IMG/VR virus record: IMGVR_UViG_3300028914_000064
Coordinates: 32,001-96,000 of that record
DNA from: a virus
Lineage: Duplodnaviria > Caudoviricetes
Length of the DNA stretch: 64,000 nt
Reading direction: 5' to 3' (one strand)
Shown here: in pieces, positions 9,734 to 17,187 of the stretch
How positions within the stretch are numbered: position 1 is the stretch's first letter
Layout: the number at the start of each line of letters is the position of its first letter
The notes under the pieces: model-generated
The model's input: the letters and a program-made list of their open reading frames with translations, nothing else
Databases searched by the model: none
What the model was told of the DNA's origin: nothing
Made by a program: the position numbers and the translations under genes

Positions 9734-10069
9734 AAATGACGAAATAAAAAGAGTATGTGATAAATGGAAAAATTTATATCAATGACTTCAAATAAATATA
9801 AAAATATTGACAAAGTTATTCCAAGTATTTACGGAAAAAAGAGACAAAAGATTTTTTATTTAAGTTTAACAACATATAGTTTAATTCCGGTTGATAATAA
9901 AATATCTTATATTACAGGAAAGGTGATTAAATTTAGAGATATATAGTACTTTCATATAAAGAAATTTTTTATAAGTACTCTTCTCTCCTCTTTTCTATTT
10001 TTATAACAAAGAAAGTAAAAAATAGGCTTATAGTATACTGTTACGCTATAAAAAATGGGAGGTAAAAAA

Positions 10070-10249
10070 ATGGCTAAAATATGTGATGATAGATGTGAAA
10101 ATTGTCTATATATTTGTGAAGGTGACTTTATATGTACAGAGATCAATGAGCTTGTGATAGTTGATTGGGTTCCGATTTATGGAACTTGTATTAAGCATAA
10201 AAAAAGAAACCTTTTTAATGATTTAAAGAAAAAAGCGGCCAAAGGATGA
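10070..10249 (+). CDS. Small Cys-rich hypothetical protein
   Basis: SD GGAGGT; CxxxCxxC. Confidence 0.6.
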   Translation: MAKICDDRCENCLYICEGDFICTEINELVIVDWVPIYGTCIKHKKRNLFNDLKKKAAKG

Positions 10250-10665
10250 TTATTATGCGTTCAAAAAGATTTAAAGAAGCAATGAAGGCTGAAGCAATAA
10301 AACGGATGCAAAGACTTGGAATATCTAATGAAGTTATTACTATCTTTAAATCTGAAAATAAATTGCTTTGTTCATATCATGTAGTACAAGTAGATGTTCC
10401 ATCTGAAATAATATCGGAACTTCAAAATTGGGAAAAAGAATCTGGGAATATAATCTATCATGTTGTTTATAGTAGATTATTTGGTTATGAAATTTACAAT
10501 GCATTAATAGTCTCTAAATATATTGAAGATTGGGATTATGAAACAATTATGATAGATAAAGGAAGGACAATGGCTTATACAATAAACGTTTCTAAACCAG
10601 ATTATTCAGAATTAGGAACGATTATTCTTGAAAATCATCATGGAGTATTACAGAGAACATATTGA
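10246..10665 (+). CDS. Hypothetical phage protein
   Basis: ORF track, ATGA overlap. Confidence 0.75.
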   Translation: MIIMRSKRFKEAMKAEAIKRMQRLGISNEVITIFKSENKLLCSYHVVQVDVPSEIISELQNWEKESGNIIYHVVYSRLFGYEIYNALIVSKYIEDWDYETIMIDKGRTMAYTINVSKPDYSELGTIILENHHGVLQRTY

Positions 10666-10709
10666 TTAAATTATTTCTATAATAATAAAAAAAATATGGA
10701 GGAATTGTT

Positions 10710-11078
10710 ATGAAGGATGATTTTGAATTTGAATTAATAAAAGCTGAATTACTTGATGCTTTTTTTGAACAACTTACTAATGTTAAACCAGCTAAAATAG
10801 AATATAGTGTAGATGAACATGGTGTAGTTAAAGGGTATATAAAAGGAAGAAATGCTGAATTACTGCTACTTGTGGCGACAATTATTAGCGATAGAATAAA
10901 AAAAATAACGGAAGATATTGAGGGTTTTTCTGATACATATTTAAAACTTTTAAAAGAAATTATTTGTGTGCTTCAAGATTATAGTATGACTTTTGAAAAA
11001 TCTAATGAACAAAATAAAAAGAATGATGAGAATTCATTAAAAAAATTCAATGATATTTTTAAGGACTTGGATTTATAA
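10710..11078 (+). CDS. Hypothetical protein, paralog of 8822..9127
   Basis: SD GGAGG; shared motifs. Confidence 0.75.
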   Translation: MKDDFEFELIKAELLDAFFEQLTNVKPAKIEYSVDEHGVVKGYIKGRNAELLLLVATIISDRIKKITEDIEGFSDTYLKLLKEIICVLQDYSMTFEKSNEQNKKNDENSLKKFNDIFKDLDL

Positions 11079-11098
11079 AAAAGGGAGGATTCTTTTCG

Positions 11099-11254
11099 AT
11101 GATAAGTCAGGATGAAGCAATTTTGATTGAAATTATGAGAGTAAATAGAAAAGAAATGGCTTTATTATATCTTGAACATTATGTTCAACGATTTGGGCCT
11201 CTTAGAAATGAAGTTGGGGATATAATTAAAAAGATTTTGGAAGAAAAAGAATAA
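11099..11254 (+). CDS. Small hypothetical protein (51 aa) upstream of tnpB
   Basis: Manual translation MISQDEAILIEIM...ILEEKE; SD GGGAGG. Confidence 0.6.
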   Translation: MISQDEAILIEIMRVNRKEMALLYLEHYVQRFGPLRNEVGDIIKKILEEKE

Positions 11255-11292
11255 GAAATAAATTTATAAAATATATTTAATGGGAGTTACTA

Positions 11293-12459
11293 ATGATTAA
11301 ATCTATGAAAGTAATGTTACTTCCTAACAACGTTCAAAAGACAAGGCTATTCCAACACGCAGGAGCGGCAAGATTTCTTTATAATTGGGCTCTTTCAATG
11401 GAAGAAAAGAATTATAAATTAGGCGGAAAATTCATATCATATTATGAGCTTGCAAAAGAACTTACAGAGCTTAAGAGAACAGATGAATATGCATGGCTTA
11501 ACGAAATATCAATCACAACATGCCAAAAGGCTATAAAAGATGCCTGTGATGCCTATTCTAACTTTTTTAAGAAAAGGGCAAAATTTCCCAAATATAAATC
11601 AAAGGATAAGACAAAACCAAGTTTCTTTCAGACAGACCAGGTTATAGAATTTACCGATACACATGTAAAGCTAAGTTGTTTGTCCCTTAGCAGGAAGGCA
11701 AATAGAAAACAATTAAACTGGGTAAGACTTGCAGAACATGGCAAGATACCAATAAATGTAAAGCATAGCAATCCGAGGATAACTTACGATGGTCTTAATT
11801 GGTGGATAAGCGTAGGGATAGAATATCCTGATAAGAATGTAAACTTATCTGAAGAAGGATTAGGTGTTGATCTAGGAATAAGGAACCTTGCTGTGTGTTC
11901 TGATGATAGCATTTATCCTAACATCAATAAGACCAAGGCGATCAAAGATTTAGAGAAGAGAAAACGAAGATTGCAACGAAGTATATCCAGGAAATATGAG
12001 ATGAACAAAAAGGGGGATGAATTTGTAAAGACAAAAAATATAATAAAAGATGAAAAAAAGTTATTAAAGATGCACCACAGGTTGAGTAATATTAGGAAAA
12101 ACTATTTACATCATACATCAAAAGAAATAGTTGAAAAGAATCCTAAATTCATCTGTATTGACGACCTAAATATTCAGAGCATGATGAAGAATAAATACCT
12201 TGCAAAAGCAATTCAGGAACAGTCACTTTATGAATTTTCAAGGCAGCTTGAATATAAGAGTAATTTCAAAGGAATCCAATTTATAAAAGCAGACAGGAAA
12301 TTTCCATCATCTAAGAAATGCAGTCAATGTGGCAGGATAAAGAAAGATTTAAAACCTTATCAAAAGACATATAAGTGTGAGTGTGGAAATGTTATTGATG
12401 TACATAAGCAAGCGGCGCTCAATCTTAAAACATATGGAGAAGAGAATATTGCAGAATAA
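11293..12459 (+). CDS. tnpB: IS607-type TnpB / Cas12f-like RNA-guided protein with degenerate RuvC (D193, E->D290, D->H371)
   Basis: N-terminal HTH (AGAARFLYNWAL), RuvC-I GVDLG, RuvC-II ICIDDL instead of IxIEDL, Zn finger CSQC/CEC, RuvC-III IDVHKQAALNL instead of IDRDxNAAxNL. Confidence 0.92.
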   Translation: MIKSMKVMLLPNNVQKTRLFQHAGAARFLYNWALSMEEKNYKLGGKFISYYELAKELTELKRTDEYAWLNEISITTCQKAIKDACDAYSNFFKKRAKFPKYKSKDKTKPSFFQTDQVIEFTDTHVKLSCLSLSRKANRKQLNWVRLAEHGKIPINVKHSNPRITYDGLNWWISVGIEYPDKNVNLSEEGLGVDLGIRNLAVCSDDSIYPNINKTKAIKDLEKRKRRLQRSISRKYEMNKKGDEFVKTKNIIKDEKKLLKMHHRLSNIRKNYLHHTSKEIVEKNPKFICIDDLNIQSMMKNKYLAKAIQEQSLYEFSRQLEYKSNFKGIQFIKADRKFPSSKKCSQCGRIKKDLKPYQKTYKCECGNVIDVHKQAALNLKTYGEENIAE

Positions 12460-12634
12460 TATTATTGTACCGAAAGCTGGTTCGGGAATTTACGCCTATG
12501 GAGAGTACTTGAACTTGTTAGTAGACAGCACCATCGTCGAAAGCATACTCGATGAAATAGGAATGGATCATAAAAGTATATCTTTTTATAAGTATTCAGC
12601 CGGGATTTAGTCCCTTGCATCTTATGAATTTGAC
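12460..12634 (+). ncRNA. omegaRNA/reRNA-like scaffold extended by a hairpin and anti-repeat (candidate tracrRNA)
   Basis: Stems CCGAA/TTCGG, CCTAT/ATAGG, GAGTA/TACTC; loop GCTG can pair with CAGC (12597-12600); IS607-like end ...CGG; TTGCATCTTATGAATTT (12615-12631) is complementary to the repeat 3' half. Confidence 0.7.
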
Positions 12635-12934
12635 CTTTTAGAAGTATGTAAATTTGCATGGGTGTAAAGCCAGTGACTTTCTTTGCTTTGTATCCAGTAT
12701 CTTTTAGAAGTATGTAAATTTGCATGGGTGTAAAGCAGAAAAGGCTGTCAGCTACGTTAAATCCATCTTTTAGAAGTATGTAAATTTGCATGGGTGTAAA
12801 GCTTACAGACATGTCACCTTGTTCATAAAGTTCTTTTAGAAGTATGTAATTTTATATGGGTGTAAAGCAAGAAGTCACATTGAAACTATATTCGGATACT
12901 TTTAGAAGCATGTGATTTTATATGGGTGTAAAGT
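12635..12934 (+). CRISPR. CRISPR array: 5 repeats (36 nt, CTTTTAGAAGTATGTAAATTTGCATGGGTGTAAAGC) and 4 spacers (30 nt)
   Basis: Repeats start at 12635, 12701, 12767, 12833, 12899 (66-nt period). First three are identical, last two degenerate. Plus orientation inferred from degeneration polarity and G:U-compatible hairpin. Confidence 0.95.
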
Positions 12935-12957
12935 ATTGATGGCTATGTGAGGATTTC

Positions 12958-13215
12958 ATAGATGCAAAGCGTCTTTTTGAGAAAATAACTAAAAGGCGGG
13001 CAATAGATGCAAAGCCCTCTCGCTTGCTATGTAATGCGTGACTATTATGGATGCAAAGTTGAAGTGTTTCAGAGTTAAAAGAAATAAGCTTGGGAACAAA
13101 TTATTAGCAGATATTGCTTTTAGGAGCCAAAACACCAAACCTGTTATTGTATACCTCTAACAAGGCTCCTAAAAGCTTATCAAGATGCAAAGCTAGACTA
13201 TAATGGATTCAAAGT
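12958..13215 (+). repeat. Mini-repeats ATRGATGCAAAG(C/T) resembling the CRISPR repeat 3' end
   Basis: Copies at 12958, 13003, 13047 (45/44-nt period); partial copies at 13182 and 13203. Confidence 0.65.
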
Positions 13216-13248
13216 GAGGAATGAAGCTTTTCAAACTAGGAGGGGAAA

Positions 13249-13431
13249 ATGGGGATAGAAGGACTTAAGTTAATAATATGCTTACTTAGCATAAATGTGA
13301 TGATTATAGCTTTTTTGATGTTAAAAACTATTCTATTGCAGAAACGAATGCTCAATATTATTGAAGATATTTTAAATAGACAAAAAAATATATTTAAAGA
13401 TTTTTTAGATATTGATAATGAAGGAAGTTAA
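13249..13431 (+). CDS. Small membrane protein
   Basis: SD GGAGGGG; N-terminal TM helix. Confidence 0.6.
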   Translation: MGIEGLKLIICLLSINVMIIAFLMLKTILLQKRMLNIIEDILNRQKNIFKDFLDIDNEGS

Positions 13432-13469
13432 AAAATAAATATAAGAAGAATTACTAAAAGGAGAAACGT

Positions 13470-13625
13470 ATGGAAATTGATATAGAAAAAGCAATAGATA
13501 GTCTTTTAGAAACAAATGTTGATGAAATAACATATAGTATGGATATACAAAGAAACAAACAGAAATATAGTATTGAATTTACAATAAAAAAAGAAGCTAA
13601 CGAAAATTTGGATAAAACTGATTAG
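13470..13625 (+). CDS. Small hypothetical protein (51 aa)
   Basis: Manual translation MEIDIEKAIDSLL...; SD AGGAG. Confidence 0.6.
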   Translation: MEIDIEKAIDSLLETNVDEITYSMDIQRNKQKYSIEFTIKKEANENLDKTD

Positions 13626-13661
13626 AAGAATTTATTTTATAATATGGATAATATTACTAAC

Positions 13662-13781
13662 TTGAATAAAAATGGCTAATATGTTATGCTTTGATAAAGA
13701 AAAGGCGGCAACCCCGCTTAATCATTAGTTAGTTTTAAGAAATAAAACCGCCATGAATGACCAGTTCGGGGCGGTTTATTT
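13662..13781 (+). ncRNA. Type I antitoxin sRNA (promoter through terminator)
   Basis: TTGAAT-17-TATGCT with extended TG; hairpin AAACCGCC...GGCGGTTT overlapping the toxin stop. Confidence 0.65.
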
Positions 13782-13856
13782 CTTTATCTGAAGAACCAAT
13801 GTTATAACAGCCACAAGCATTATTACAAAAGTAAATAATTCCATATAAGTTACCAT
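13776..13856 (-). CDS. Putative holin-like type I toxin, 26 aa (MVTYMELFTFVIMLVAVITLVLQIKK)
   Basis: Manual translation; SD GGAGGTG; matches the Hol_Tox-like pattern. Confidence 0.75.
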   Translation of the reverse strand: MVTYMELFTFVIMLVAVITLVLQIKK

Positions 13857-13955
13857 TGGCATCACCTCCTCGCATACGCGAGGCTACCGCCTAAAAGATC
13901 ATATAATATACAAAAATATAAAAAGAAAACCTTTTATAATAAAAAAGTTTTCTTT

Positions 13956-15123
13956 TTATATATCTCTTTTCAATATTTCTGCAACATCATCAATATTTTT
14001 TTTTACAATAAATGGCGTTTTCATTCCTTCACAAAAAATATTTGTACATATAGATGGATTTCCATGTAAGAAGGATGGAGTAAGTCCATTTACATTCTTG
14101 GGATTTATGTATATATTATCAATTTTAATCAAGTTCACTTTATTTATTCTCCTTTATATGCTCATTTTAATATCTCTAATTCTTTATATGGTGCGTTCCA
14201 AAAATCTTTAGAGTAATGATGCTGATATTCCTTATTTTCCCCCATTACAACAACAATATTCTCTAATTCCATAACTTTTTCACTAGGAAACATCATCCTT
14301 CTAATATCCCCATTAGTCGCATTGTTGGGAATTGGTATTGCCTGAACCGTATAATAATCTAGTTCAAGTGTATTCCTAGCCCACTGCAAAGCCCATAAAT
14401 AGCCAATTTGTCCGCCATCTTTTACTGTTCCGCAAGGTTCATCCCTTTTTAGTTGTTTTGCAACAATATCCGCTGTAGTGTCGATATTGGCGCGCAATCT
14501 CTCCATGTATTCATCTGCGTTAATTACTCTCATTCACTCACCTCCTTTGTATGGTTCGGGTGATTGCATCCAAGCTACTACATTTGCCCAGTATTCAAGT
14601 TCTCCAATCCAAATACCAAGCGTCATATATCCTTCTTTTACTGTGACTAAATATGTTCCGTATTTTTCAGGCAACCGCTCACTAATAGGAATCCATTCCG
14701 TCTGATTTAGTAGGTCAATAATCATTTTGCTTGCTTGATATGTTCCACTATTAGGAGCGAGTTCAATCGCTTTCATCATTTGTTCACAATGTTTTCTAAG
14801 ATCTTCTCTTGTCATTACTCTTCTTCCTTTTCTCCTAACAACTTAGCCATAATATCACAAAGTTCATGATAACTAATTACAAGTGCTCCTCCATCATATA
14901 GTTCTTCTGCATAATCGATTATTGCTATATCTTTGACTCGATTTCGAAGTTCATCGAAATAGGATTGGACTATTGCTAGTTTAACAGTTTCATTATTAGA
15001 AACACAGATGCCTTTTGATACTGCTTTCCATATTTTTTCACAATTAAGTAATGAAATATAGTTAGTATTGTTTTTTGCATCTTTTACCATATCATTGGGA
15101 ATATCAATAAGTATTTTTGCCAT
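13956..15123 (-). other. Four small phage hypothetical CDS (13956-14138, 14162-14533, 14534-14815 DUF551-like, 14815-15123)
   Basis: Tightly packed ORFs with SDs; WIPISERLPE...VVAWM motif in 14534-14815. Confidence 0.75.
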
Positions 15124-16956: not shown

Positions 16957-17187
16957 TCACATTTGGTTTAAAAATGCTTGTGCTGTATTTCTATTATTGT
17001 ATATATTTCCTTCGTCTTCTATACCAATCATATAAGCACATCCCTTTTCTTCCCAAGCAATAATCATATTAGGATATACTTTTGAAATTTTAAGTTTATA
17101 GACTTTTTTTGTTTTAGTTAATTCATTATGATATGCATAATAAATTTCCATACCAGGACTATATTCTTTAGTATAATCAATATTCAT
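16957..17187 (-). CDS. Hypothetical protein
   Basis: ORF track, overlapping neighbours. Confidence 0.7.
   Translation of the reverse strand: MNIDYTKEYSPGMEIYYAYHNELTKTKKVYKLKISKVYPNMIIAWEEKGCAYMIGIEDEGNIYNNRNTAQAFLNQM

Follow-up and report, generated by a model that had tools for sequence, protein, structure and literature searches.

In TranC (transposon-CRISPR intermediate) systems, first published in 2025, the omegaRNA is functionally split into a tracrRNA and a crRNA (original work cited in bioRxiv 10.64898/2026.03.27.714800 and PMC13565253). One clade carried by Caudoviricetes, clade 9 or CauTranC9, has an active effector of TnpB size and an array of five repeats with a 38-bp repeat, and no consistent tracrRNA was identified for it (bioRxiv 10.64898/2026.03.27.714800). 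Forty V-U* groups in which TnpB is associated with an array are also known, and it was left open whether such arrays arose by duplication of an omegaRNA segment or by insertion beside an existing array (PMC10691335). In IS607 transposons, RAGATH-18 forms the core of the reRNA, and a pseudoknot, PK2, has been defined in the reRNA of ISFba1 (PMC11061315). Arrays of type II-A group 1 consist of 36-nt repeats of the form GTTT...AAAC behind a leader that ends in ATTTGAG (PMC5382924).

The locus described here lies in a window of 64,000 nucleotides, positions 32001-96000 of an IMG/VR virus record 126 kb in length; near-identical DNA was present in runs labelled bovine gut metagenome. An original prediction for this DNA had described an omegaRNA apparently converted into a tracrRNA, a split-RNA architecture arising from a single omegaRNA. 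Its anatomy of the locus was right; the architecture is not new, having already been published as TranC, and TnpB-array groups of the V-U* kind were known as well. The proposed trans pseudoknot proved unnecessary, and the features of the array argue against an origin from a single omegaRNA. The reading that we favor, and consider probable on balance, is that a phage-borne, domesticated IS607-type TnpB acts as a miniature CRISPR effector, TranC-like or V-U-like, with the tail between its scaffold and its array as the anti-repeat. That a TnpB-derived effector uses the adjoining array is, taken by itself, very probable. The features of the locus are as follows.

11293-12459, plus strand: TnpB-type RNA-guided nuclease of 388 aa, IS607 lineage
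12470-12485, plus strand: 5' hairpin of the scaffold, aligning with the CGTTA loop hairpin of array-less relatives
12495-12563, plus strand: RAGATH-18 core, full-length match to Rfam RF03064 (model positions 1-71)
12570-12603, plus strand: last scaffold hairpin, AUAAAAG/CUUUUUAU, with UCAGC (12596-600) and CCGG (12600-03), placed by alignment to relatives
12602-12614, plus strand: small hairpin GGGAU-UUA-GUCCC, kept in 14 of 14 loci
[quoted passage not shown]
12628-12634, plus strand: leader-end motif ATTTGAC directly before repeat 1, near-invariant in the clade
12635-12934, plus strand: CRISPR array of five 36-nt repeats and four 30-nt spacers, from a repeat search
12737-12766, plus strand: spacer 2, with a 30/30 protospacer in another phage
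12959-13218, plus strand: mini-repeats (A)GATGCAAAGC, 11-13 nt, four to five copies at irregular spacing
[quoted passage not shown]

The locus shares with TranC a TnpB-sized effector adjoining a short array, the absence of cas1 and cas2, and the proposal of an omegaRNA split into tracrRNA and crRNA. A phage carrier and phage-targeting spacers are further likenesses to TranC and CauTranC9, as are five repeats of 36-38 nt in the window against five of 38 bp in clade 9; CauTranC9 was compared by its description rather than its sequence. To that description the window locus adds a complete scaffold with a cis pseudoknot, the tail, a type II-A-like leader end and the mini-repeats. With the V-U* and Cas12f-like miniature systems (PMC10691335) it has in common an array downstream of a TnpB-like gene without adaptation genes, and V-U24 is linked to an HTH protein, as are most loci of the window's clade. 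However, V-U* effectors are usually enlarged, and RuvC-I of V-U24 is non-canonical whereas that of the window TnpB is canonical. ISFba1 (PMC11061315; PDB 8iaz) has a homologous protein and the same 5' hairpin, RAGATH-18 core, 3' hairpins and PK2 geometry. It is mobile, has tnpA, takes its guide from the flank and uses the TAM AGGAG, whereas the window locus has neither tnpA nor a left end, a conserved tail and an array in place of the flank-derived guide, and Gln for a TAM-contacting Lys.

The array itself resembles those of type II-A (PMC5382924) in its 36-nt repeats, 30-nt spacers, ATTTGA- leader end, -TTTTAG repeat start, AAA-C repeat end and polarized acquisition. The leader-repeat junction is GAG/GTTT and the repeat end AAAC in type II-A, against GAC/CTTT and AAAGC in the window; the signature positions agree at 6/7 for the leader end (ATTTGAC against ATTTGAG of group 1), 3/4 for the junction and 3/4 for the repeat end, so that the array is similar to type II-A but not a member. 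It differs further in that no cas9, cas1 or cas2 was found and in the absence of a tracrRNA for the 5' half of the repeat. The type II-A-like array of this hybrid is the most interesting addition. As in TranC and V-U systems, TnpB was stably linked to an array (about 14 loci at 78-96% protein identity) and the spacers were variable and matched a mobile element (44 spacers, one of them with a 30/30 phage protospacer). We conclude that the locus is a real system, either new or possibly an already catalogued TranC- or V-U-like member.

TnpB matched the Pfam families HTH_OrfB_IS605, OrfB_IS605 and Cas12f1-like_TNB, in keeping with a TnpB protein with RuvC and zinc-finger domains. Its best solved relative was 8iaz_A, the IS607 TnpB of ISFba1 (E 8.6e-70), while LaTranC (9jfo) was a distant match (E 3.7e-11). 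Only one copy occurs in the 126-kb record. Upstream of tnpB, neither tnpA nor a left end was found, and an HTH gene or its remnant stood there instead. In most array-bearing loci, including L080-L085, an Xre-type HTH gene of 109-112 aa overlaps the start of TnpB; in the window, only about the last 15 nt of this gene are left at 11255-11292 (ATGGGAGTTA..), after a 51-aa ORF. The marks of a mobile element, namely tnpA or transposon ends with a variable flank as guide, were thus lacking, and the sequence after the right end was conserved.

The catalytic triad of TnpB falls on D193, D290 and D369. The RuvC-II motif of the window copy reads IDDLN rather than IEDLN and its RuvC-III context IDVH rather than IDRD, as might be expected if the effector were nuclease-dead and acted as a CRISPR-guided repressor like TldR or Cas12m, an alternative that concerns the output and not the RNA architecture. 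However, the Glu-to-Asp change at D290 is conservative, and the clade members P0010, P0014 and P0016 keep Glu. D193 and the Asp aligned with the catalytic D371 of ISFba1 are invariant, and active ISFba1 itself reads EDRA at RuvC-III, without the second Asp of "DRD". Given these invariant residues, the retained Glu in some members and the ISFba1 precedent, the nuclease is not evidently dead, and we consider a dead effector very unlikely. At the position of the TAM-contacting K83 of ISFba1, array-less relatives have Lys and the array clade has Gln78, a correspondence that uses an inferred numbering offset of +3; this exchange hints at a changed TAM.

About 16 protein clusters were 78-96% identical to TnpB; the next identity was at most 64%, among thousands of ordinary TnpBs. 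Named TnpBs among the more distant relatives were few and came from Lachnospira. The close clade was sampled as about 14 distinct loci, and in every clade locus with enough downstream DNA the scaffold was followed by a tail of 31-32 nt and then by an array, which held 2-12 repeats. None of the relatives examined at 64% identity or below carried an array, and all had an ordinary transposon end. Their scaffolds end in ...TTTTCAGTAACGG, where similarity stops, usually a few bases before the start of a gene. Several distant relatives either sit behind G-rich flanks resembling Shine-Dalgarno sequences or have upstream what looks by eye to be the C terminus of an IS607 tnpA; this fits the TAMs AGGAG/GAGGG reported for IS607 TnpBs.

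All sequence motifs named in the original prediction were located: CCGAA at 12470-74 with TTCGG at 12481-85 around the loop GCTG (12476-79), CCTAT at 12495-99 with ATAGG at 12558-62, GAGTA at 12503-07 with TACTC at 12548-52, and the IS607-like end TTCAGCCGG at 12595-12603. The RAGATH-18 match scored 64.4 bits against a gathering score of 44.9 (E 1e-11), and by this covariance-model match the CCTAT/ATAGG and GAGTA/TACTC stems, predicted to be omegaRNA-like, are P1 and P2 of Rfam RAGATH-18. No other Rfam match was found across 10000-14500 at E<=1. Positions 12570-12603 align column for column with ...ACTTTTTATAAGTTTTCAGTAACGG of array-less relatives, and the whole reRNA architecture is kept up to CCGG (12600-03), the former right end of the transposon. 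An IS607-type omegaRNA scaffold is retained complete.

The loop GCUGG (12476-80) forms the 5' strand of PK2. In the array clade it pairs with UCAGC (12596-600), while the corresponding pairing in array-less relatives is CGUUA:UAACG, so that the two strands covary between the groups. Five of five pairs are formed in 10 distinct sequences and four of five in the other 5, which carry a G-to-A change. It had been proposed that a crRNA could supply this pseudoknot in trans, with the AGC of the repeat pairing with the loop GCU (12476-78); it would then displace UCAGC, as in repeat:anti-repeat 2 of Cas12f. All loci keep the loop AAGCUGG and the repeat end AAAGC unchanged, and the G-to-A change weakens the cis strand in 5 of 15 distinct sequences, as this proposal would allow. 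However, the repeat offers at most 3 pairs against the 4-5 formed in cis, the cis strand is kept in every locus, and covariation is uninformative here because loop and repeat end do not vary. A trans pseudoknot is thus possible but unnecessary, and we regard it as quite improbable.

Repeats of the window array start at 12635, 12701, 12767, 12833 and 12899, a period of 66, and have the form CTTTTAGAAG...GTAAAGC; the last two are degenerate. Homologous arrays of relatives contain 2-12 repeats and, together, 44 distinct spacers of 29-31 nt. Spacers common to several loci sit distally, unique spacers lie nearest TnpB, and degenerate repeats are found at the far end. This polarity of spacers and repeat decay indicates that the array evolves as CRISPR arrays do, the leader being next to TnpB. 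The protospacer of spacer 2 lies at 17044-17073 of IMGVR_UViG_3300033463_000266, a complete 45-kb phage, flanked by ...CTTTTTAA on the 5' side and TTATAAGG on the 3' side, on the sense strand of a 100-aa ORF that looks by eye like an HNH endonuclease. Scans of other spacers against the viral collection found nothing, apart from two matches to the arrays themselves; the 44 spacers gave no further match to the target phage or the collected loci, and the array gave only chance-level matches to the phage collection.

Cas1 and Cas2 were not found in the 126-kb record, and a Cas9_PI search of the record, run without a positive control, gave no match. A pattern scan of a genome collection for a host array with the same repeat gave only single chance matches among the matches listed, and the repeat pattern was absent from a sample of 401 genomes of the family to which a Lachnospiraceae MAG belongs. 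The type II-A-like geometry and leader end would also suit an array that TnpB does not use at all, an orphan mini-array serving a host Cas9 or, read from the other strand in the manner of VI-D, a host Cas13. The reverse complement of the repeat presumably resembles Cas13d repeats, being identical at 24 of 36 positions, counted by hand, to what we take to be a Eubacterium Cas13d repeat, and the lone protospacer lies on a sense strand, as fits RNA targeting from the minus strand. However, the distance from the scaffold end to repeat 1 is fixed at 31-32 nt in all loci, such arrays occur only with this TnpB clade, and the polarity of repeat decay and spacer novelty points to a leader next to TnpB, at the other end from where a VI-D reading would have it. 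Further, the phage showed neither a tracrRNA-like anti-repeat to the initial 20 nt of the repeat nor a cas gene. An orphan array is therefore very unlikely.

Several minor features of the arrays were recorded. One spacer occurs twice in the same array in L002 (4379-4408 and 4773-4802) and contains the mini-repeat motif CAGATGCAAAGT; duplicated spacers were also present in several arrays (L018, L015). A spacer of L014 (1550-1579) and one of L084 (2423-2452), from different lineages, have the same boundaries and differ at 6 of 30 positions, which reflects either inheritance of an old spacer or acquisition of the same site twice from diverged targets. A record labelled as a Listeria phage (L208, OR846793.1 7672-7715, UNVERIFIED_ORG) contains about 41 nt at 92% identity to the repeat (E 0.06). 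This stretch is coding (...FLEVCNIGIG...) and the resemblance is most likely due to chance, which advises caution for other short similarities. A hairpin within the repeat, UUUGCA/UGUAAA, was considered as the basis of a tracr-free model; its 5' arm changes to UUUACA, UUUCAC or UUUUAU while the 3' arm is uncompensated, and this candidate was disfavored.

Between the scaffold and repeat 1 lies the tail (12604-12634, 31 nt), which is conserved among loci with entirely different spacers. As predicted, the flank-derived guide has been replaced: where relatives have a free guide, this conserved tail is followed directly by the CRISPR array. The tail consists of the small hairpin, TTGCATC, a variable stretch of 5-6 nt and AATTTGAC. 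Variants of the hairpin across loci, such as GGGA-GUAA-UCCC and GGGAU-UUA-AUCCC, keep four invariant pairs, and TTGCATC is invariant save in one lineage with TTGCATT. [quoted passage not shown]

The proposed anti-repeat at 12615-12631 fared unevenly. Its complementarity recurs in the clade: across 14 loci, 88% of the proposed tail-repeat cells were paired, against 28-57% when the partners were slid, and the duplex outperformed shuffles (p<=0.05) at 10 of the 14. Pairing of each tail with its own repeats was slightly stronger than when tails were permuted among loci (-10.0 versus -9.5 +/- 0.2 kcal/mol, p ~0.02). [quoted passage not shown] However, the duplex of the window itself was marginal, at -10.6 kcal/mol against -6.7 +/- 2.1 for shuffles, of which 5% were as good, and it lay outside the 15 best plus-strand windows of 24 nt. 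The covariation that had been named as a check was not significant, with 199 of 500 shuffles scoring as high over the 14 loci. Repeats ending in GUACAAAGC (L019, L037, L082) place a C-A mismatch in the 8-bp core while the tail is unchanged. Collectively, these comparisons leave the chance that the tail is an anti-repeat at close to even.

The same tail can be read as chiefly a DNA-level leader end, that is, an integration signal for a type II-A-like Cas1-Cas2, with the complementarity a by-product of a palindrome; the crRNA would then dock otherwise, by protein recognition of the AAAGC handle or pairing elsewhere, or there would be read-through transcripts only. ATTTGAC resembles ATTTGAG, and since it is a leader-end motif, the last 7 nt of the putative anti-repeat may be conserved for integration rather than pairing. 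The RNAalifold consensus contained 0 compensatory pairs and picked a leader-end/repeat-end pairing instead of the anti-repeat. Every repeat contains a second copy of TTGCAT, so some of the complementarity may simply reflect a palindrome internal to the repeat, and the marginal tail duplex of the window suits this explanation too. However, the explanation does not account for the invariance of TTGCATC and the hairpin, both situated upstream of the 7-10 nt required in a leader, nor for the advantage of own-locus pairing, nor for decayed repeats that keep exactly the proposed handle, AGAUGCAA+AGC. We consider it unlikely, and retain the tail as the candidate anti-repeat. The survival of the handle and AGC in decayed repeats provides, from comparison of the copies, the best indirect support for that candidate.

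A second pairing had been predicted for TTTACGCCTATG (12489-12500), which forms 12 consecutive pairs with the repeat segment CATGGGTGTAAA. In the window this duplex is real and strong (-15.2 kcal/mol, equalled by 0 of 1000 shuffles), but in 7 of 14 loci it was no better than shuffles. As a conserved anti-repeat it was rejected: it is the strongest duplex in the window but at shuffle level in those 7 loci, and it would break P1 of RAGATH-18. The TTTACGCC pairing is lineage-specific.

Downstream of the array, four of the seven plus-strand copies of GATGCAAAG in the 126-kb genome fall within 12959-13218. In all, 70 mini-repeats were counted across 12 loci, at irregular spacings of 19-150 nt, and tails of mini-repeats are also present in L002-L004, L014, L019, L035, L037, L084 and L086. 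At their core is AGAUGCAA, which complements UUGCAUCU exactly, and pairing of a mini-repeat with the tail in the window reached -10.3 kcal/mol (p ~0.006). The mini-repeats may be minimal crRNA handles, decayed repeats or elements that act as DNA, such as protein binding sites. Neither the tail nor the mini-repeat "spacers", read as guides, had a target in the phage's own genome. Some of the sequences between mini-repeats are conserved from locus to locus; CCTCTCGCTTGC.ATGTAATGCGTGACTATT, for one, occurs in both the window and L014.

The arms of the terminal hairpin covary between lineages (GGAGCC/GGCTCC, GAAGCTTG/CAAGCTTC and GAAGC/GCTTC), with an invariant ACACCAAAC in the loop and TTATCAAGATGCAAAGC after the 3' arm. 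This hairpin may be a processing or termination element. By a hand count, its 3' arm could pair with the 5' end of every repeat at 10 of 11 positions.

In the mechanism that we propose, a single transcript probably carries TnpB, the complete omegaRNA scaffold, the tail of 31 nt and the array. A scan for promoters and terminators gave background levels, with no terminator-like site between TnpB and the array. An RNA-library contig bridges the equivalent of 12296-12737 in a relative about 96% alike over the stretch compared, from the 3' end of TnpB through the scaffold and tail to two repeats; this is a weak hint, since such contigs lack strand and ends and DNA may occur in an RNA library. The scaffold keeps all its own structure, including the cis pseudoknot, and the flank-derived guide would be replaced by the small hairpin and an anti-repeat composed of UUGCAUCU and about 10 more nt. 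This anti-repeat is predicted to pair with the last 8-20 nt of the repeat, so that AGC and the spacer would take the ancestral position of the guide. Pairing with repeat 1 would occur in cis and yield a natural single guide, while later repeats and the 11-nt mini-repeats would pair in trans as crRNA with a tracrRNA. The predicted repeat-spacer RNA has the form ..AGAUG/GGGUGUAAAGC followed by 16-30 nt of spacer. New spacers would most likely come from a host adaptation module and be used against competing phages; the type II-A-like repeats and leader end, together with the absence of cas1 and cas2 from the phage, make a host module the most likely source. Adaptation by a host module that is specifically type II-A-like is a tentative proposal, somewhat short of probable.

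The original prediction derived the whole arrangement from a single omegaRNA. Instead, the repeats and the leader end, ATTTGAC against ATTTGAG, look type II-A-like, and by its repeat length, repeat ends and leader end the array appears to be the product of capture or convergence and not of a single omegaRNA. The repeat is also identical at 24 of 36 positions, by a hand count, to what we take to be the S. pyogenes repeat. Together, these likenesses suggest that a type II-A-like adaptation module was the source of the leader-repeat unit or now serves it. A bolder form of this idea is that an IS607 TnpB with its omegaRNA was combined by a phage with a type II-A leader-repeat unit, that a host adaptation machinery of the Cas9 type loads the spacers of a TnpB-sized effector, and that an 11-nt handle (AGAUGCAA+AGC) pairing with a 3' extension of the omegaRNA suffices. 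We put this forward as a speculation that is more doubtful than probable. If true, it would show directly that capture of an existing array, rather than duplication of omegaRNA segments, can give rise to type V-like systems, and it would constitute cross-type sharing of CRISPR memory.

The clade is informative in this respect through its TnpB-sized protein, complete scaffold with its own pseudoknot, known array-less relatives and type II-A-like leader end. These features open array capture to direct testing, and likewise the minimal RNA change proposed, a 3' hairpin and an 8-nt anti-repeat. On the practical side, the locus provides an effector of 388 aa whose guide RNA is naturally laid out as a single guide.

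Short similarities to the tail, array and downstream region were also seen in the flanks of array-less relatives. L215 (2843-2905) and L216 (2783-2845) are the nearest of these, at 63-64% identity. Three elements stand out in their 3' flank: GGGATTTAGT, which has the sequence and the placement of window 12602-11; CCTAAAAGCATATCAA, agreeing with window 13168-83 at 15 of 16 positions (score 27 against 17.8 +/- 2.3 for shuffles); and the mini-repeat-like TTTTTGATGAAGC. From these flanks it looks as if the array was inserted or expanded inside one short flank of the L215/L216 type. In L029 (3846-3885), an array-less relative at 59% identity, the flank after the transposon end reads TTGCATGGGTG followed by TTTTAGATAGTATTTTAAAT, that is, the 3' part of the repeat joined to its 5' part, and is at the same time the start of a 265-aa gene. 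Its Smith-Waterman score was 32 against a shuffle maximum of 19.1 +/- 2.7, a value reached by 2 of 1000 shuffles.
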